A DNA stretch of 24,653 nucleotides from a plasmid: sequence record NZ_CP092562.1, one strand, 5' to 3'. Positions 1 through 6,644 of the stretch are shown here, in pieces. Each line of letters starts with the position of its first letter. The stretch's first letter is position 1. The translations under genes and the position numbers were made by a program. The notes under the pieces are model-generated. The model did no database searches, was not told the DNA's origin, and saw only the letters and a list, made by a program, of their open reading frames with translations.

Positions 1-984
1 ATGCAAAATCAATATTTTACAGTGCAAGAAAATTACAAAGAAAGATTTTATCAAATCCCTAAAGTATTCTTTACCAGTGAAAATTATAAAAATCTAACTA
101 ATGATATGAAAATAGCCTATGCTATCTTACGTGATCGCTTAAATTTATCTATTAAAAATAGCTGGGTTGATGAAGATGGTAACATTTACTTTGTTTATTC
201 AAATGAAAAGCTAATGGAAATCTTAAATTGTAAAAAAGAAAAGTTAACAAAAATAAAAAAAGGGTTAGAAAACGATGGTCTACTCATTCAAAAACGACGT
301 GGTTTAAATAAACCAAATATTCTATATTTAATGAAACCTATTGTCACAGAACGTGATATTTACAAAATAGAAAAAGAAGAAAACGATGTTGAACCTTACG
401 GCGAGAAGGAAGTTCGAAAATCGAACGTCCAGAAGTTCGAAAATCGAACGTCCAGAAGTTCGAAAATCGAACGTCCAGAAGTTCGAAAATCGAACACTAA
501 TGATACTGACTTTAATGACATTGACTTTAATGATACTGAGAATAATGATATGAATGACTTGAATGATATAAAGTACAAAAATGAAATTAGTAATCATTCA
601 AATCATTCAAATCAATTTACACATAATTTTGATGATAAAGAAATGCTATTGCAAGAATTCCCAGAACAACTAACTAATTATTTATTAAAATATGATTATA
701 GAGATTTAGAAATCATAAAGGCTGTTATTCTTAAAGCAAAAAAATCATTTAATTCAAGGCATGAAGATATGCATTACATGTTAGAGGACATTGAGGATGA
801 AATATTAACTTCTTTAAAAAGACTTAAAAAAGCTATACATGATAGGGGAGTTAAAGGCCAAAAGGAAACAATCAAGTCAATGCAAGCTTATTTAATGCAA
901 ACAATTCTAACTGAACTTGAAGAAACACATGCCCTTTATATGCGCCGTAAAAACATGAAACAATATAATATCTTTAATCAATAA
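1..984 (+). CDS. rep: RepA_N-family plasmid replication initiator (theta replicon of the pSK1/pI258 type)
   Basis: 327-aa ORF. The N-terminus MQNQYFTVQENYKERFYQIPKVFF...YAILRDRLNLS matches my memory of staphylococcal RepA_N initiators. It has an Asp/Asn-rich linker and a conserved C-terminal domain. 23-bp tandem repeats lie inside the coding region, as in this family. Confidence 0.8.
   Translation: MQNQYFTVQENYKERFYQIPKVFFTSENYKNLTNDMKIAYAILRDRLNLSIKNSWVDEDGNIYFVYSNEKLMEILNCKKEKLTKIKKGLENDGLLIQKRRGLNKPNILYLMKPIVTERDIYKIEKEENDVEPYGEKEVRKSNVQKFENRTSRSSKIERPEVRKSNTNDTDFNDIDFNDTENNDMNDLNDIKYKNEISNHSNHSNQFTHNFDDKEMLLQEFPEQLTNYLLKYDYRDLEIIKAVILKAKKSFNSRHEDMHYMLEDIEDEILTSLKRLKKAIHDRGVKGQKETIKSMQAYLMQTILTELEETHALYMRRKNMKQYNIFNQ
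409..496. repeat. About 3.7 tandem copies of a 23-bp unit GAAGTTCGAAAATCGAACGTCCA inside rep (iteron-like, candidate internal origin)
   Basis: Read directly: copies start near 409, 432, 455 and 478 (partial). The period is not a multiple of 3, so the protein reads EVRKSNVQ/KFENRTSR/SSKIERP in the three frames. RepA_N plasmids carry their origin inside rep. Confidence 0.7.
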
Positions 985-1099
985 TTCAAATGATTTTATA
1001 ACACTCGAAGAGACATCAAAATATTCCGTTAAATCATCTGACTTTTTAACTGATGACGACGAAAAAAATCAAGAAATTGTAAGTGATTTAGAAAAAGGT

Positions 1100-1285
1100 T
1101 TGTATCGAAAACGTATGTTAAGTTATGGTGGATTGCTTAAACAAAAGCATAAAATTTTAAACTTAGACGATGCCGAAGATGGTAATTTGATTAATACAAG
1201 TGATGAAGATAAAACGACAGACGAAGAAAAAAAGCACATTCAATTACCGCAATTTGGAATTTCGAAAAGCAAAATTATTATTTAA
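1100..1285 (+). CDS. Hypothetical small acidic protein downstream of rep (TTG start in the ORF track; true start uncertain)
   Basis: The open frame extends upstream to about 1020 with no ATG. The product is D/E/K-rich. A rho-independent terminator follows it directly. Confidence 0.3.
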   Translation: MYRKRMLSYGGLLKQKHKILNLDDAEDGNLINTSDEDKTTDEEKKHIQLPQFGISKSKIII

Positions 1286-1316
1286 GACATTAGTGATAAC
1301 TGATGTCTTTTTTTAT
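1285..1316 (+). terminator. Rho-independent terminator (agacattagt-GATA-actgatgtct + T7)
   Basis: A 10-bp stem with one mismatch, a 4-nt loop, then TTTTTTTATT. Confidence 0.6.
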
Positions 1317-1336
1317 TGTTTTTCTGTAAAAAAGTG

Positions 1337-1395
1337 CTGTCTTATTTTTGTGACAAATGCTGTATGTAGTGTCACAAAAGTGTGACACTACAGCT
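1337..1395. promoter_or_regulatory. Cluster of TGTGACA / TGTCACA / GTGTGACAC dyads (candidate recombinase or regulator binding site)
   Basis: TGTGACA-N14-TGTCACA followed by the palindrome GTGTGACAC. The half-sites resemble serine-recombinase or operator sites. No coding potential. Confidence 0.3.
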
Positions 1396-1527
1396 TTGTA
1401 TGATATCACTTTAAAATAACTTAAAACCCTTGGAATGTCTGGCCTTGCCAGATCTATCATTTTTGAATGATAGCAAATTTCCCTTATGCTCTTACGGAGA
1501 TTTTAGAGTTAAATTAAAATTTCTAAG

Positions 1528-1790
1528 TTTTTGATAAGAAAAGCCCTGCAGGAATTTAGAAAAACATGGGGAAGTTTTAAAGTATTTTATGCTAATTTTT
1601 AAATTTGCATGTAAATGGGCAGTATCTAAAAAATTAGTCACTGATTTTTCTGAAATTTTTGTTTGTGAAATTAGCATATATTTATTTGGCTCATATTTGC
1701 GTTTTAAGAGACTGTATAGATTTTTAAGTACAAAACCTATATGATTTGCCTCTAAGTCTTCAAAATGCCTCTTAAAATCCAAAATAAAAG
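1528..1790. repeat. Repeat B copy A, about 260 bp, roughly 85% identical to 3274-3530
   Basis: Direct alignment by eye. The shared blocks are CCTGCAGGAATTTAGAAAAAC(A/G)TGGGGAAGTTTTAAAG, TTTGCATGTAAATGGGCAGT and GGCTCATATTTGCGTTTTAA. The copy starts at TTTTTGATAA, immediately 3' of a dso-nick-like junction. Confidence 0.6.
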
Positions 1791-1839
1791 TGTTTAATAT
1801 TGTAATAAGGATTGCTATTTTTATAAAAGGAGAGATATC

Positions 1840-1989
1840 ATGAAGATTAAAACTTTCGCTACTTTTACTCATCGTCAATTAGATAAACAAGTTAATAGGT
1901 TTTTAAAGAATGATATTCATGTATTAGAAATTCAAACACACAGTAATTGGTTATATATTTCAGCTATTGTTTTTTATGAGGATAAATAA
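1840..1989 (+). CDS. Small protein, Cse60-family-like (49 aa)
   Basis: ATG preceded by AAAGGAGAG. The pattern FATFTHRQLDKQVNRFLKNDIHVLEIQ...WLYISAIVFYE resembles the Cse60/YteV small-protein family. It is below the ORF-track length cutoff. Confidence 0.45.
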   Translation: MKIKTFATFTHRQLDKQVNRFLKNDIHVLEIQTHSNWLYISAIVFYEDK

Positions 1990-2000
1990 GGAACATCGTA

Positions 2001-2156
2001 TTTATGCCGAAAAAATTTATTGATGTTGAGAAGAACCCTTAACTAAACTTGCAGACGAATGTCGGCATAGCGTGAGCTATTAAGCCGACCATTCGACAAG
2101 TTTTGGGATTGTTAAGGGTTCCGAGGCTCAACGTCAATAAAACAATTGGAATAAAA
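2001..2156 (+). other. ssoA/palA-type single-strand origin-like structured element, copy A
   Basis: About 157 bp, about 97% identical to 4047-4203. It forms a long imperfect hairpin: GTTGAGAAGAACCCTTAAC pairs with GTTAAGGGTTCCGAGGCTCAAC, AAACTTG with CAAGTTT, CGAATGTCGGC with GCCGACCATTCG. The inner hairpin ATAGC-GUGA-GCUAU presents the CS-6 motif TAGCGT. The 5' part TTTATGCCGAAAAAATTTATTG resembles RSB. Confidence 0.55.
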
Positions 2157-2849
2157 TCAACCTACAGAGCATCCAGCTGCAAATGCAGTTCCGCAAACTG
2201 CTTCACATACACCGCCGGCTATTGGATTTACGATTGCCCATACTCCACAGTAGTGAGCACATGCATAAAGTCCAGCCATACTACAAGCGAATGCTTTGCC
2301 GTTCCATTTGAATCCTGCATATGTTACCGGTCTGTTTTTATCAACTTTTTCAGCCTTATATTCAACGTAATTTTTGTTAATAAGTATTTTTCCCTCTTTG
2401 TTTTCAGTCATACTTCTTTTTTCGGCAATGAATTTTGTGATTTTTTTGTTGTAGTTATCATATATTGTTTCAGAAACTACAATTTCTTTTGTTTTTTCAT
2501 TTTTATAAGCGTTATTAGCTATGTAGCCATATGCATTTTTATCATTTGCTTCTGTAGCTAGATATTTTAATTTAGAATTTTTGTCTTCTAGCTTTATTTT
2601 TTTAAATCCTTCTTTTTTCATTTGCTTTTCGAATTTTTGCATATCTTCATTTTTATTTTGCAATTGTTCTAGAAAACTTATTTCTTTCTTGGTCATTTGT
2701 GATACTTCGATGTTTTTGCTTTTCAATTTTTCTTTTTGATTTTCTAGTAAAGAACTTTTTTGTTCTTCATTTGCGTAAGCATTAGAAAAATTCGCGCTAA
2801 ATACCAGTAGGAACAAGGAAATTATTGAAAATAATTTTATAATTTTCAT
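2157..2849 (-). CDS. Secreted Lys/Glu-rich protein with a Cys/Gly/Ala-rich hydrophobic C-terminal domain (candidate toxin or bacteriocin-like protein)
   Basis: 230 aa. A Sec signal peptide ends at SNAYA/NE. A long K/E-rich, predicted coiled-coil region follows. The last roughly 55 aa, FKWNGKAFACSMAGLYACAHYCGVWAIVNPIAGGVCEAVCGTAFAAGCSVG, carry 7 Cys and small-residue spacing. A GGAGG RBS precedes the start. Confidence 0.6.
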   Translation of the reverse strand: MKIIKLFSIISLFLLVFSANFSNAYANEEQKSSLLENQKEKLKSKNIEVSQMTKKEISFLEQLQNKNEDMQKFEKQMKKEGFKKIKLEDKNSKLKYLATEANDKNAYGYIANNAYKNEKTKEIVVSETIYDNYNKKITKFIAEKRSMTENKEGKILINKNYVEYKAEKVDKNRPVTYAGFKWNGKAFACSMAGLYACAHYCGVWAIVNPIAGGVCEAVCGTAFAAGCSVG

Positions 2850-2958
2850 TTGATACCTCCAAGATAATAAGATATTTTAATTGTATAAGTAAGCGCTTTA
2901 TAAAATCAATATTTATTTTAATATATTTATAAACATATTTTTGAAAGGAGTCTATTTT

Positions 2959-3153
2959 ATGAATGAAAATTTAGAAAAATATATAAAAAGTTTGCCACTT
3001 TTAGGTTTGTTAATTAGTATTTTGTTAATTGTTTTATTCTTTTTTATTTTAGATGTTGATGAAGATTTATTCGTGGTTTTTTTATACTGTTTATTGCCTT
3101 TGATAGTTAATTTGTCTATTTATGGTTTTTATGTTTTTGTTAAAAGAAAGTAA
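2959..3153 (+). CDS. Small two-helix membrane protein (64 aa), divergent from the 230-aa gene; candidate immunity protein
   Basis: ATG at 2959 follows AAAGGAG. Two hydrophobic segments, LPLLGLLISILLIVLFFFIL and VVFLYCLLPLIVNLSIYGFYVF. Confidence 0.5.
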   Translation: MNENLEKYIKSLPLLGLLISILLIVLFFFILDVDEDLFVVFLYCLLPLIVNLSIYGFYVFVKRK

Positions 3154-3238
3154 GATTATGAATAATTTTGTTTTTAATTTGTATGCTTTGAGGGGGTTGG
3201 AAAACGGTAGGTGTATAGATTAGATTTCTTGTTTTTTT

Positions 3239-3273
3239 GAAACGAGTGTGAACGAGTTTCTTCTTGTCTTGAT
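3239..3273 (+). other. pC194-family dso nick-site-like motif, copy 1 (GAAACGAG[TGTGAACGAG]TTTCTTCTTGTCTTGAT)
   Basis: TTCTTCTTGTCTTGAT matches the pC194/pUB110 nick region TTCTTTCTTATCTTG^ATA. Homology with the copy at 5251-5275 stops right after CTTGAT, which is the predicted nick position. Confidence 0.45.
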
Positions 3274-3530
3274 TTTTGATAAAAACGCCCTACAGGAATT
3301 TAGAAAAACGTGGGGAAGTTTTAAAGAATTTTATGCTAATTTTTAATTTGCATGTAAATGGGCAGTGTCTAAAAATAGTTATTGTTTTTGCTCAAATTTT
3401 TGTTTTTGAAAATAGCATATATTTATTTGGCTCATATTTGCGTTTTAAAAGCATATATAAGTTTTAGATATAAAACTATATGAATCACCCCTAAATCTTT
3501 AAAATGCCCTCTTAAAATTCAAAATAAGGG
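3274..3530. repeat. Repeat B copy B (about 85% identical to 1528-1790)
   Basis: See copy A. It begins immediately 3' of the nick-like motif. Confidence 0.6.
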
Positions 3531-3540
3531 CATAAAAAAT

Positions 3541-3580
3541 AAAAGCTACCCCAGATAAAGTGAGGTAGCTTTTTCTTTCA
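3541..3580. terminator. Bidirectional rho-independent terminator (AGCTACC...GGTAGCT with T-runs on both sides)
   Basis: A 7-bp stem with a 14-nt loop, followed by TTTTTCTTT on the + strand and by a T-run on the - strand. Confidence 0.5.
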
Positions 3581-3918
3581 TACGGTCTATTTATTTTTCT
3601 TTCGACGCCGTATCGTCGATGTAATTCAAAAAAGTTATGGGCTATAAATCTACATCACTTTTTCAAGAATGTAGTAGCAATATTCAACGCAAATTAATTT
3701 TTATAACTGCTCGGAATATCTCAAGCCGTTTCTTTAATTTTGAAATAAAAAAATCGACGAAGGTCGATTACGTTTTTGCACATGTCGATTTATCCGACGT
3801 ATAAGTGCGCCCTTACGGGATTTAACTAGATTATAACGACGAATTTTAGACCTGTAAAGCAATAACAATTAGGTCTACCAGGTAGATAAAGTGTACAAAG
3901 TAGAACCGAAAAAGTTAT

Positions 3919-3996
3919 TTATTTTGAAGATTTTTCGTAGATATAATTTGCTAATAAACTTCCTAAAACTGAATAAAGAAAAATAGTTAAACTCAT
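3919..3996 (-). CDS. 25-aa hydrophobic peptide MSLTIFLYSVLGSLLANYIYEKSSK (candidate type I toxin-like or leader peptide)
   Basis: Minus-strand ATG 8 nt after GGAGTGA. A single TM-like segment with a charged tail. A palindrome GTGTCTCCATGTCTACGCATAGACAC lies just upstream (4019-4046). Confidence 0.35.
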   Translation of the reverse strand: MSLTIFLYSVLGSLLANYIYEKSSK

Positions 3997-4046
3997 GTAA
4001 TCACTCCATAATTCTGAAGTGTCTCCATGTCTACGCATAGACACGC

Positions 4047-4203
4047 ATTTATGCCGAAAAAATTTATTGATGTTGAGAAGAACCCTTAACTAAACTTGCA
4101 GACGAATGTCGGCATAGCGTGAGCTATTAAGCCGACCATTCGACAAGTTTTGGGATTGTTAAGGGTTCCGAGGCTCAACGTCAATAAAGCAATTGGAATA
4201 AAG
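4047..4203 (+). other. ssoA/palA-type single-strand origin-like structured element, copy B
   Basis: Near-identical to 2001-2156, differing at about 3 positions near the 3' end. It carries the same CS-6 TAGCGT loop and the same RSB-like 5' part. Confidence 0.55.
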
Positions 4204-4238
4204 CACCTATGATTATTTAAAAATATAAGTTATAATAC

Positions 4239-4258
4239 ATTCAAAAATATTTTTGAAT
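4239..4258. promoter_or_regulatory. cadDX operator: perfect 20-bp palindrome ATTCAAAAATATTTTTGAAT just downstream of a TATAAT -10
   Basis: The perfect dyad sits between the -10 hexamer (4231-4236) and the cadD RBS. ArsR/SmtB regulators such as CadC and CadX bind 12-2-12 dyads of this type. Confidence 0.65.
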
Positions 4259-4268
4259 GAGGTGTATT

Positions 4269-4886
4269 ATGATTCAAACGGTTGTTGCTGCTGCTGTTCT
4301 TTATATTGCTACAGCAGTTGATTTATTAGTAATTTTATTAATATTTTTTGCTAGAGCAAAGACTAGAAAAGAATATAGAGATATTTATGTTGGTCAATAT
4401 TTAGGGTCTATTATTTTAATATTAGTTAGTTTGTTTTTAGCTTTTGTATTAAATTATGTTCCAGAAAAGTGGATATTAGGTTTATTGGGTTTAATACCAA
4501 TTTATCTTGGAATTAAAGTGGCTATTTATGATGATTGTGAAGGAGAAAAGAGAGCTAAAAAAGAATTGAATGAAAAAGGATTGTCTAAATTAGTTGGTAC
4601 GGTTGCAATTGTTACGATAGCAAGTTGTGGCGCCGATAATATTGGTTTATTTGTTCCGTATTTTGTGACATTAAGTGTTACTAATTTATTACTTACTCTG
4701 TTTGTCTTTTTAATTTTAATTTTCTTCTTGGTGTTTACTGCACAAAAATTAGCTAATATTCCAGGAATTGGAGAAATTGTTGAGAAATTTAGTCGTTGGA
4801 TTATGGCTATTATTTATATAGCTTTAGGTTTATTTATTATTATTGAAAATGACACTATTCAAACAATTTTAGGATTTATATTTTAA
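4269..4886 (+). CDS. cadD: Cadmium resistance transporter CadD
   Basis: 205 aa, MIQTVVAAAVLYIATAVDLLVILLIFFARAKTRKEY..., recognised as CadD. GAGGTG RBS. The ORF-track start at 4257 is an upstream extension. Confidence 0.9.
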   Translation: MIQTVVAAAVLYIATAVDLLVILLIFFARAKTRKEYRDIYVGQYLGSIILILVSLFLAFVLNYVPEKWILGLLGLIPIYLGIKVAIYDDCEGEKRAKKELNEKGLSKLVGTVAIVTIASCGADNIGLFVPYFVTLSVTNLLLTLFVFLILIFFLVFTAQKLANIPGIGEIVEKFSRWIMAIIYIALGLFIIIENDTIQTILGFIF

Positions 4887-4904
4887 TTTAGGGTGTGATT
4901 TTAT

Positions 4905-5252
4905 ATGAGTTATGAAAATACTTGTGATGTGATCTGTGTACATGAGGATAAAGTTAACAATGCTTTAAGTTTTTTAGAAGATGATAAATCTAAGAAATTA
5001 CTTAACATTTTAGAAAAAATTTGTGATGAGAAGAAATTGAAAATCATATTATCTTTGATTAAAGAAGATGAGTTGTGTGTTTGTGATATTTCTTTGATAT
5101 TGAAAATGAGTGTTGCTTCAACTTCACATCATTTAAGGCTTTTATATAAAAATGAGGTACTTGATTTTTATAAAGATGGAAAGATGGCATATTATTTTAT
5201 TAAAGACGATGAAATAAGAGAGTTTTTCTCTAAAAATCATGAGGGTTTTTGA
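4905..5252 (+). CDS. cadX: ArsR/SmtB-family metalloregulator CadX
   Basis: 115 aa with the ELCVCDISLIL...SHHLRLL metal-binding HTH region. Directly downstream of cadD. Confidence 0.9.
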   Translation: MSYENTCDVICVHEDKVNNALSFLEDDKSKKLLNILEKICDEKKLKIILSLIKEDELCVCDISLILKMSVASTSHHLRLLYKNEVLDFYKDGKMAYYFIKDDEIREFFSKNHEGF

Positions 5253-5275
5253 AACGAGTTTCTTCTTGTCTTGAT
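5251..5275 (+). other. pC194-family dso nick-site-like motif, copy 2 (GAAACGAGTTTCTTCTTGTCTTGATAC)
   Basis: It overlaps the cadX stop codon. It contains CTTGATA, matching the pC194 and pUB110 nick sequence CTTG^ATA. Confidence 0.45.
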
Positions 5276-5408
5276 ACTATAAAAAACAAAGTTATATAAC
5301 ATAAGACGACTTATCGGAAGTAGATATGCTTGTATATTCACAGATGGTATAATAATAGAGTCGCCTATCTCTCAGGCGTCAATTGACGAAGAGAGGAGGT
5401 GCATTACT

Positions 5409-5501
5409 TTGCTAATCATTTTCGTTCACATCATAGCACCAGTCATCAGTGGCTGTGCTGTTGCGTATTATACTTATTGGCTTAGTAAACGCAACAAATA
5501 A
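5409..5501 (+). CDS. Type I toxin, SprA1/PepA1-like membrane peptide (30 aa, MLIIFVHIIAPVISGCAVAYYTYWLSKRNK)
   Basis: Near-identical to PepA1 (MLIFVHIIAPVISGCAIAFFSYWLSRRNTK) as I recall it. TTG start 9 nt after GGAGGTG. The 5' UTR can pair CTCTC with GAGAG to occlude the SD. Confidence 0.7.
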   Translation: MLIIFVHIIAPVISGCAVAYYTYWLSKRNK

Positions 5502-5530
5502 TTAATAGGCGACTTTATAAGCCAGCATCG

Positions 5531-5594
5531 AAAAAATCCCCACACTACTGCAATAGTGTGGGGATTGGTGCATTAATTGTTAATCATTTTCGTT
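5531..5594 (-). ncRNA. SprA1AS-like antisense RNA (about 64 nt), convergent with toxin 1
   Basis: Minus-strand promoter TTGCAT-18-TGTTATAAT (5601-5630). The predicted 5' end carries AACGAAAATGATTAAC, complementary to the toxin start region TTGCTAATCATTTTCGTT (5408-5426). It ends at the hairpin CCCCACACTA/TAGTGTGGGG followed by UUUUUU on the minus strand. Confidence 0.5.
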
Positions 5595-5672
5595 ATATAA
5601 ATTATAACACTGGTTAGTAGAGAAATGCAAAATGATTGAATTAATAGTAAATGTATTAATGAATACTCACAC

Positions 5673-6644
5673 TTATACTTTTAAAATAGTTCTTCCTAAA
5701 TGTTGTCCTTTTAAAAGCTGATCTATCGTTTTATAGAATTCTTCAAATCCAATTTCATTGTATAGAAGTGAATTTCCTATATTCCATTCATTTGCTAACT
5801 TACTCCATATATCTTCACGGATATTATGATCAACATATACAGAATCAATGCCAATTAATTTAATACCTCTAAGAATAAACGGTAATATATTAGCGTTAAG
5901 TGAATTTCCTGCTACATTTCCACATACAGTAGCAACACCTTGATAATTTAGACGTTTTAAACCGTATAATGTTACATTACTCCCCACTGTATCTAAGAAA
6001 TAATCAAAAATACCTTTTTTAAGCGGTTTATTATCATCTTCAATTATTATTACTTGTTTTGCACCTAATTTTTTTGCGATTTCTATTTGCTTTTCTTTTC
6101 TTACGATAGCAGTGATATTTTCATATCCAATTTTATGTAAAATTTGTATAGCAACACTGCCCACACCACCTGTAGCCCCAGACACTAAAATTTCAGGTTG
6201 TGATTTGATATTCATTCCATATTTTTCTAGTTCAAAAATTGATAATGCTGCCGTAAAACCGGCTGTGCCATATACCATAGACTCTTTAATAGACATTTCT
6301 TGGGGAATAGGAACAATCCACTCTCCAGGCACTTGTGCATATTCTGAAAATCCACCTGTATGTGTCACGCCAACATCATAACCAGTAACTAATACATTAT
6401 CGCCTTCTTTAAACTTATCATTCGAACTTGATTCAACAATACCTGCAAAATCTATACCAGGAATCATAGGATAATCTCTAATTACACCGCCTTTATATTG
6501 TAAAGCTAGCATATCCTTATAATTTATTGAAGAGTATACCACTTTTACTAATACATCACCCTTCGATAAATGAGATTCATCAACTTTTTCTACTTTATAA
6601 CTAACATTTGATGCACTTTTTCTCACTACTACCGCATTGAACAT
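5673..6644 (-). CDS. YhdH/YhfP-family NADPH:quinone oxidoreductase (MDR superfamily, acrylyl-CoA reductase-like)
   Basis: 323 aa with GATGGVG in the Rossmann motif and a GroES-like N-domain. Confidence 0.75.
   Translation of the reverse strand: MFNAVVVRKSASNVSYKVEKVDESHLSKGDVLVKVVYSSINYKDMLALQYKGGVIRDYPMIPGIDFAGIVESSSNDKFKEGDNVLVTGYDVGVTHTGGFSEYAQVPGEWIVPIPQEMSIKESMVYGTAGFTAALSIFELEKYGMNIKSQPEILVSGATGGVGSVAIQILHKIGYENITAIVRKEKQIEIAKKLGAKQVIIIEDDNKPLKKGIFDYFLDTVGSNVTLYGLKRLNYQGVATVCGNVAGNSLNANILPFILRGIKLIGIDSVYVDHNIREDIWSKLANEWNIGNSLLYNEIGFEEFYKTIDQLLKGQHLGRTILKV

Follow-up and report, generated by a model that had tools for sequence, protein, structure and literature searches.

The window analysed here is the whole 24,653-nucleotide (nt) stretch of the plasmid record NZ_CP092562.1. 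It opens with the gene of the RepA_N theta-replication initiator of the host plasmid, directly 3' of which begins a region of small-plasmid accretion (1001–5281) that carries the cadD–cadX genes and two copies of a motif resembling the double-strand origin (dso) nick region of the rolling-circle plasmids pC194 and pUB110. The region is laid out as two tandem rolling-circle units. Unit 1 runs from a rep remnant through the core of an origin of transfer (oriT), repeat A, a type A single-strand origin (ssoA copy A) and a bacteriocin-like open reading frame (ORF) with orf70 to dso copy 1; unit 2 runs from repeat B through a RefA1 small RNA (sRNA), a 25-residue ORF, ssoA copy B and cadD–cadX to dso copy 2 (Table 1). 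Because the array is periodic, the dso, the ssoA and the A/B repeats are all direct repeats. The rolling-circle rep gene is deleted from unit 2 and truncated in unit 1, in which the remnant corresponds to residues 235–331 of the Rep of the free plasmid pKH18 (95% identity, one frameshift) and is the sole Rep_1 remnant in the window. A preliminary description of this DNA had placed repeat B, a terminator, the 25-residue ORF, ssoA copy B and cadD–cadX, and no rep gene, between the two motif copies; the contents are as described, and no Rep_1 similarity was found inside 3239–5277.

Copy 1 of the motif reads GAAACGAGTGTGAACGAGTTTCTTCTTGTCTTGAT (3239–3273) and copy 2 reads GAAACGAGTTTCTTCTTGTCTTGAT (5251–5275), with a spacing of 2002 nt from start to start; both the sequences and a repeat search agree with the positions given earlier. 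The copies have in common a 23-nt exact block, AACGAGTTTCTTCTTGTCTTGAT (3251–3273 and 5253–5275), and a second, 14-nt block, TTTTTGAAACGAGT (3234–3247 and 5246–5259), which begins 5 nt further upstream (TTTTT). The 11-bp internal duplication that had been ascribed to copy 1 is present as extra material, but its size is 10 nt (35 versus 25 nt). Both copies contain the nick core CTTGTCTTGAT, which goes on with ATA in copy 2 and ATT in copy 1, and past CTTGAT they differ (TTTTGATAAAAACG in copy 1 versus ACTATAAAAAACAA in copy 2). In the 24.6 kb, exact CTTRTCTTGAT is found at these two places only; a tolerance of one mismatch raises the matches to 6, versus 1.7 expected, a count reached in 0 of 100 shuffles, and the motif thereby stands above the AT-rich background.

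The identity of the motif was settled by comparison with free plasmids. The free cadDX plasmids in the collection are 3.3–3.5 kb in size and rep-bearing. Those examined in detail, pKH18 and p2148.N, have the order dso, Rep_1, oriT, repeat, ssoA, cadD, and cadX; the sequence ...TTTTTGAAACGAGTGAAACGAGTTTCTTCTTGTCTTGATACTATATAGAAATAAC... stands directly after cadX, between cargo and rep, and the 331-residue Rep_1 gene begins 161 bp past the nick. The Rep of pKH18 scores 309 bits with Pfam Rep_1, and has 56% identity to pUB110 RepU and 36% to pC194 RepA. The nick core CTTATCTTGATA is carried by both pC194, as ttctttCTTATCTTG^ATA (in a fuller stretch, ttctttCTTATCTTGATAataagggtaac), and pUB110, as ttctttCTTATCTTGATAcatatagaaataac, and the nick of pC194 has been given as CTTG^ATA (PMC5037232). 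The matches in pKH18, pUB110, and pC194 therefore identify the motif as the left arm plus nick core of a pUB110/pC194-family dso, with the family core CTT(A/G)TCTTG^ATA on the rep-bearing strand. The two copies are genuine nick regions of this Rep_1 family, as the preliminary description had proposed; both the alignment and the seat of the motif 5' of Rep_1 in the free cadDX plasmids bear this out.

Two scans extended the comparison, one of genomes (one genome per species, 120 loci, with a pattern that required CTTGAT) and one of metagenomes (left-anchored, at least 119 loci). More than 60 small plasmids have the motif ~160–200 bp 5' of a Rep_1 gene. In both scans the right arm ATACTATATAGAAATAAC, that of pKH18 and close to ATACATATAGAAATAAC of pUB110, accompanies a pKH18/pUB110-like rep at about +160, and the right arms ATAATAAGGGTAACTATT and ATACTATAGGTAACTATT accompany a pC194-like rep at about +192 to +209; canonical right arms are thus followed by a rep that starts 160–209 bp 3', and non-canonical contexts have no rep downstream. 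Since the right arm co-varies with the Rep type, it probably carries the Rep specificity. At copies 1 and 2 there is no Rep_1 gene ~160–210 bp 3' on the same strand, as there is in pKH18, in locus L003, and at more than 60 other loci, and the subfamily-specific right arm (ATACTATATAGAAATAAC... or ATAATAAGGGTAACTATT...) is lacking, with 0 nt left beyond AT in copy 1 and 8 nt in copy 2. Unlike the dso of the free plasmids, the copies in the window are half-origins, not working origins. Both are probably dead for initiation and would be usable at most as termination sites.

Downstream of copy 1 and up to copy 2, unit 2 is collinear with pKH18. Window 3693–5281 matches pKH18 1750–3340 (counted from the nick) with 96.8% identity over 1.6 kb, and the match stops at +8 (ATACTATA); copy 2 is native through ACTATA to that point, after which the sequence passes with AAAAACAAAG... 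into an Fst toxin–antitoxin locus. By this alignment, the integrated pKH18-like cadDX plasmid keeps its native origin in copy 2, cut short 8 nt beyond the nick; the pairwise break at CTTGAT is therefore due to copy 1 alone. The earlier claim that homology breaks at the nick accordingly holds at copy 1 (within G^AT) and fails at copy 2; in pMW2-like relatives (L004 and L011), the corresponding break is at about +20. The dso/Fst junction recurs with other cargo in L016, and diverged versions of it occur in several further Staphylococcus species. The dso(+8)/Fst junction (window 5282–5330) is conserved, with divergence, among loci L022, L026, L032, L058, L074, L089, and L187, and in L187 the Fst region is the same but the junction differs (+3). 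The dso–Fst association is old, and possibly recurrent.

Copy 1 has a left arm with 100% identity to that of the free plasmid p18808-P01, and past CTTG^AT continues with TTTTGATAAAAACGCCCTACAGG, the start of repeat B (junction CTTGAT/TTTTGATAAAA). In pKH18 this sequence lies 1,421 nt past the nick, beyond rep and the pWBG749-type oriT core CCTTATGCTCTTACGG; window 3267–3542 matches pKH18 1417–1697 (from the nick) with 88.6% identity over 0.28 kb. Repeat B of pKH18 is preceded by AAATTTCTCGAT, and has as its nick-like neighbour TTTCTCG^AT (TTTCTCGAT; pseudo-site AAATTTCTCGATTTTTG). The crossover is confined to G^AT, between a T/C difference at −2 and an A/T difference at +3, and TTTCTCGAT is one of only two non-origin 9-mers of pKH18 that end in GAT and have no more than two mismatches to the nick core, out of 77 GAT sites. 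As read from this comparison, the fusion removed the right arm, rep, and an oriT, that of unit 2. The match at 1482–1497 is the only exact one to the 11-nt oriT core (CTTATGCTCTT) in the whole window, and no second oriT core was found within 1001–5281, the copy of unit 2 having been lost along with rep. A relaxase/oriT origin of the copy 1 junction was considered and rejected, the junction lying 34 nt 3' of the expected end of the 16-nt oriT core.

Very probably, the motif copies are half-origins that mark where two captured units of rolling-circle type end, and copy 1 is the product of a fusion at the nick that deleted rep. In the explanation that we favour as a whole, with a probability of about 0.78, two pUB110/pKH18-like Rep_1 plasmids would have been captured head-to-tail beside the RepA_N replicon of a pUSA300HOUMR-type plasmid, giving the region 1001–5281. 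The origin of unit 1 would have been fused, inside the G^AT at the nick, to cadDX-plasmid sequence that lies 1,421 nt downstream in that plasmid, and copy 2 would be the native origin left at the right end. The Rep nickase may have made the copy 1 join by cleaving both the nick and the pseudo-nick in an aberrant initiation or termination, and the rep-deleting join may have been retained because an active rolling-circle origin would destabilise a theta plasmid. For Rep as the maker of the fusion, our preferred mechanism, we put the odds somewhat above even. The preliminary description had attributed the break to Rep-mediated initiation and termination or to nick-site recombination, which suits copy 1, joined at the nick to a nick-like partner, and does not suit copy 2, whose break is off the nick.

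The same region also has the form of a DSO-gene-SSO cassette, a model that Wassenaar et al. (2016, PMC5037232) put forward for qacC and lnuA. It is reasonably likely that the functional mobile module is an ssoA–cargo–dso cassette of this kind, in which the dso copies serve as the right-hand homology arm only. The cadDX genes lie between ssoA and the dso left arm. In L016 a 193-residue ORF replaces cadDX with the same ssoA end (CAATTGGAATAAA), dso left arm, and dso/Fst junction, and p18808-P01 and unit 1 have still other cargos in the same slot, with the ssoA end and left arm in common. The cadD–cadX segment (4269–5252) and its flanks have 99.1% identity to p2148.N, compared with 83–92% for the rest of the units (few comparators). 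As in the published cassette, cargo between ssoA and dso is better conserved than the backbone, and the boundaries are a conserved dso and the ssoA-end repeat AATAAAGCAATT, the reverse complement of DR3 (PMC5037232); unlike it, the cargo here is read on the nicked strand and the copy resides inside a theta plasmid. Gene flow through ssoA is exemplified by L003 (GCA_903802035.1, 1008–4298), a window-type plasmid including the copy 1 junction, into which a complete p18808-P01 (NC_018960, 3,125 bp) is integrated with 99.9% identity over 3,292 nt; this match equals one p18808-P01 length plus a 167-nt ssoA duplication, and therefore indicates a crossover in ssoA. The cassette accounts for the spread of cadDX, but not for the fusion of copy 1 to repeat B at the nick, and so complements the favoured explanation.

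To see how such joins are distributed over the family, the break points of the motif were surveyed; the counts that follow are among the metagenome matches listed. Canonical right arms were present in 87 of 128 occurrences, and the rest made up 32 computed contexts. Setting point variants of the nick core aside by hand and merging contexts by eye left about 25 distinct ones without rep, of which 1 breaks at −3, 2–3 at 0 to +1, about 11 at +2, about 6 at +3, and about 5 at +4 to +8. Divergence thus falls at 0 to +3 in ~20 of the ~25 junctions without rep, and a single one lies 5' of the nick. At loci L060 and L129, the nick is likewise joined to the post-rep repeat (CTTGAT/ATTTGCGTTTTAAG), in a second event independent of that at copy 1. 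The clustering suggests Rep cleavage at nick-like G^AT(A) sites, and would be hard to obtain from random deletion.

Several points weigh against our explanation. Of the two scans, only that of metagenomes was left-anchored, with a pattern that ends 9 nt before the nick and so does not depend on what follows; the scan of genome contigs is biased, as its pattern required CTTGAT, so that breaks upstream of the nick were invisible to it. The peak at +2/+3 partly reflects the AT(A) common to nick-like partners and functional conservation of the nick core. Two event orders fit, either a deletion inside the cointegrate or the integration of an already rep-less circle. Rep cutting of these sequences is itself a prediction from sequence. 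Finally, the copy 1 join could equally be RecA-independent slippage on the TCT-GAT microhomology, and sequence alone cannot separate the two. In its full form, this last alternative dispenses with Rep: homologous recombination built the array, and rep was then lost by a slippage or microhomology deletion that chanced on GAT. The ssoA crossover in L003 provides an example of the first step, the 3 nt of exact and 7/9 nt of imperfect homology at the copy 1 junction would serve the second, and cointegrates commonly go on to lose rolling-circle replication regions by deletion (PMC5703833). Although this is the main rival, we consider it rather unlikely, as the endpoint falls among the two most nick-like of the 77 GAT sites, and as slippage predicts neither the pile-up of junctions at 0 to +3 nor their near-absence from the 9 nt preceding the nick.

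The preliminary description had further proposed that a trans-acting pC194-family Rep could mobilise the 2.0-kb dso-to-dso unit, giving a route for cadDX spread. Spelled out, Rep would nick at copy 1, replicate as far as copy 2, and free a rep-less cadDX circle of 2,002 bp. In favour of this are the two nick cores on one strand, spaced by 2,002 nt and enclosing an ssoA, and engineered pC194 systems, in which a full origin with a 36-bp terminator releases the intervening circle (PMC7072734). In L003-type plasmids, moreover, copy 2 is preceded at a distance of 3,317 nt by an intact dso with rep, an arrangement able in principle to release a pKH18-like circle; such release by normal termination is known tandem-origin behaviour, not a rep-less unit. 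The figures cited in PMC7072734 are about 55 bp of origin for initiation of pC194, versus a 36-bp piece for termination. The upstream end of the 2.0-kb segment would lack an initiation-competent origin, copy 1 being devoid of the whole right arm, and copy 2 has 8 nt only, so that initiation at either would be unlikely. No HUH transposase or Rep lies inside the segment, whose ORFs are cadD, cadX, and small peptides. Among the 72,556 plasmid records of PLSDB, neither the circle or tandem junction cadX–dso–repeat B nor the empty site orf70–dso–Fst was found at ≥80% coverage (0 records each; raw reads were not searched), and the empty-site query brought up L016, with the same dso/Fst junction and different cargo. 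Besides, the copy 1 junction was seen only in S. aureus plasmids with orf70 upstream, and the free cadDX plasmids are 3.3–3.5 kb and bear rep. A mobile dso-to-dso unit, for which IS91/Helitron-type rolling-circle elements would be the analogue, is thus very improbable, and the gene flow seen consists instead of ssoA crossover and cargo replacement, both of which are known. The idea that the motif resembles a nick region by chance alone, or is the end of a transposon or insertion sequence, has nothing but AT-richness in its favour, and its probability is practically nil against a 23-nt exact repeat, a count unmatched by any shuffle, a regular position 5' of Rep_1 in so many small plasmids, and the lack of an IS257 inverted repeat and of a transposase nearby.

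Table 1. Features of the accretion region and its flanks in the window (positions 1–5552).
Feature	Position	Strand	Basis and remarks
RepA_N theta-replication initiator of host plasmid	1–984	+	Pfam RepA_N and Bac_RepA_C; annotated 'replication initiator protein A'
Rep_1 3' remnant, left end of unit 1	1001–1290	+	tblastn; Pfam Rep_1 fragment; Rep_1 fragment also called in L007
pWBG749-family oriT core (CCTTATGCTCTTACGG), unit 1	1482–1497	+	match to the core defined in PMC4652767
Repeat A, conserved post-rep, post-oriT region, unit 1	1531–1790	+	85–94% identity to 3275–3530
ssoA copy A	1997–2155	+	99% identity to 4044–4202
Unit 1 cargo, ssoA-to-dso slot	2157–3153		annotation; Gpos_C8-like; no Pfam match
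230-residue bacteriocin/immunity-like ORF	2157–2849	−	annotation
70-residue membrane ORF (orf70)	2941–3153	+	annotation
dso copy 1: left arm with nick core, joined past CTTG^AT to repeat B; rep-deletion junction	3234–3273	+	predicted nick 3271/3272
Repeat B, start of the unit 2 remainder	3274–3542	+	pKH18 about 1422–1697 from nick; blastn 88.6%
RefA1-family sRNA, unit 2	3569–3791	−	Rfam RF02842 ('Enterococcus sRNA A1'), full length, 262 bits; gathering score 94
25-residue hydrophobic ORF (MSLTIFLYSVLGSLLANYIYEKSSK)	3919–3996	−	ORF list; also in free plasmid pKH18
ssoA copy B, left boundary of cadDX slot, ends ...CAATTGGAATAAA	4044–4202	+	99% identity to copy A; comparison with L016 and L003
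cadD	4269–4886	+	Pfam Cad
cadX	4905–5252	+	Pfam HTH_5
dso copy 2: left arm, nick core, 8 nt of right arm (ATACTATA); right end of integrated pKH18-like unit	5246–5281	+	predicted nick 5273/5274
Host-plasmid backbone past copy 2 junction	5282–5552		Fst toxin and fstAT antitoxin RNA
Fst toxin	5409–5501	+	annotation
fstAT antitoxin RNA	5452–5552	−	RNA family search

Window 2900–5700, the only part searched in PLSDB, is 100% identical to 27-kb plasmids of S. aureus USA300 of the pUSA04/pUSA300HOUMR type, and at least 80% of this 2.8-kb query is present in one place in 578 plasmid records. No IS257 inverted repeat was found within 2 mismatches across the whole window, nor any transposase among the ORFs neighbouring the motifs; the array is therefore not a classical IS257 cointegrate, and IS257-mediated cointegration was rejected. 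A free plasmid with the bacteriocin cargo of unit 1 was not found among 60 evenly spaced of 2,051 records, in which small plasmids matched the rep-downstream region and ssoA only. The single-stranded DNA fold of ssoA copy B has a z-score of −7.4. In the cadDX unit, the RefA1 sRNA sits between the terminator and the 25-residue ORF, which may encode a type I toxin-like peptide beside it. Inside the RepA_N gene, four tandem 23-bp repeats (GAAGTTCGAAAATCGAACGTCCA; 409–495) are presumably the iterons of the theta origin.

Further origin-like sequences were met in the collection. In pKH18 (L012, ~290–300), a second exact nick-core 9-mer, TGTCTTGAT, lies 1,742 nt past the real nick, just after a terminator, and could be a secondary termination site. 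A truncated dso left arm (TTTTGAAACGAGTTTCTTCTTGT/TTTCACACTG), which breaks 6 nt before the nick, stands 5' of ssoA in L003 (3996–4018), L006, L010, L011, and p18808-P01 (at 1794), and belongs to the native sequence of p18808-P01-type plasmids. Short contigs with staphylococcal-type rolling-circle origins, several with rep, turned up by the genome scan in Streptomyces, Actinoplanes, Micromonospora, Prevotella, Acinetobacter, and other assemblies (L018, L024, L033–L035, L041, L046, L072, L075, L093, and others), and look like contamination or index bleed. The metagenome contig L172 (~2291) passes from the dso straight into a Nextera adapter (CTGTCTCTTATACACATCT), an assembly artefact. The plasmid pRW001 was dropped as a small cadD plasmid, as the literature gives it as a 37.5-kb plasmid.

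Nearly all of this setting is already known, namely the plasmid, its cointegration history, the cassette model, and illegitimate recombination at nick sites. O'Brien et al. (2015, PMC4652767) describe how cadDX/oriT rolling-circle plasmids were taken up repeatedly by pMW2, pUSA300HOUMR, and pIB485 through cointegration, and in these cointegrates, as here, Rep_1 fragments stand beside RepA_N, oriT mimics lie 3' of rep, and cadDX is linked and repeatedly captured. The need to inactivate rolling-circle functions in cointegrates is stated by Al-Trad et al. (2023, PMC10135026) and in PMC5703833, which also deals with aberrant replication events and abrupt cassette junctions. In the passages searched of PMC4652767 and PMC10135026, no dso junction analysis was found, whereas the junctions here are mapped to the nucleotide, one of them at the nick; IS257, the classical route of cointegration, is not involved in the window. 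The oriT deletion of pWBG762, in which the relaxase acts between same-strand oriT copies (PMC4652767), resembles the present case in that a nickase starts at one site and ends at a second, but enzyme and site are different.

Rep-mediated illegitimate recombination or aberrant termination at nick sites has been reported by Ballester (1989) and by Gruss and Ehrlich (1989), as cited in PMC5703833. The likeness to the copy 1 junction is that one endpoint is at the nick and the other nick-like, with the DNA between them lost in the direction of replication; the earlier cases are laboratory constructs, unlike the fixed natural junction of a widespread clinical plasmid here, in which the role of Rep is our proposal. 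Michel and Ehrlich are also said to have carried out experiments with pC194 on nick-site illegitimate recombination in 1986. What is new is the precise natural nick-to-pseudo-nick deletion of rep in a very common clinical plasmid, together with the survey of break points.

The analysis reveals no new route for the spread of cadmium resistance. It helps the annotation of such plasmids, in which tandem rolling-circle units and probably dead half-origins occur with no IS257, and the copy 1 junction offers a concrete natural substrate for testing Rep-mediated recombination. A wider idea, which we hold doubtful, is that the half-origins in staphylococcal plasmids and chromosomes act as termination- or strand-transfer-competent sites for co-resident Rep_1 plasmids. 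Cutting and pasting of modules by Rep nickases at nicks and pseudo-nicks would then be routine and would extend to the release or rescue of rep-less cadDX circles, and the pile-up of junctions at 0 to +3 among the matches listed would be the footprint of that pathway. The survey itself suggests that nick-proximal joining recurs across this plasmid family.

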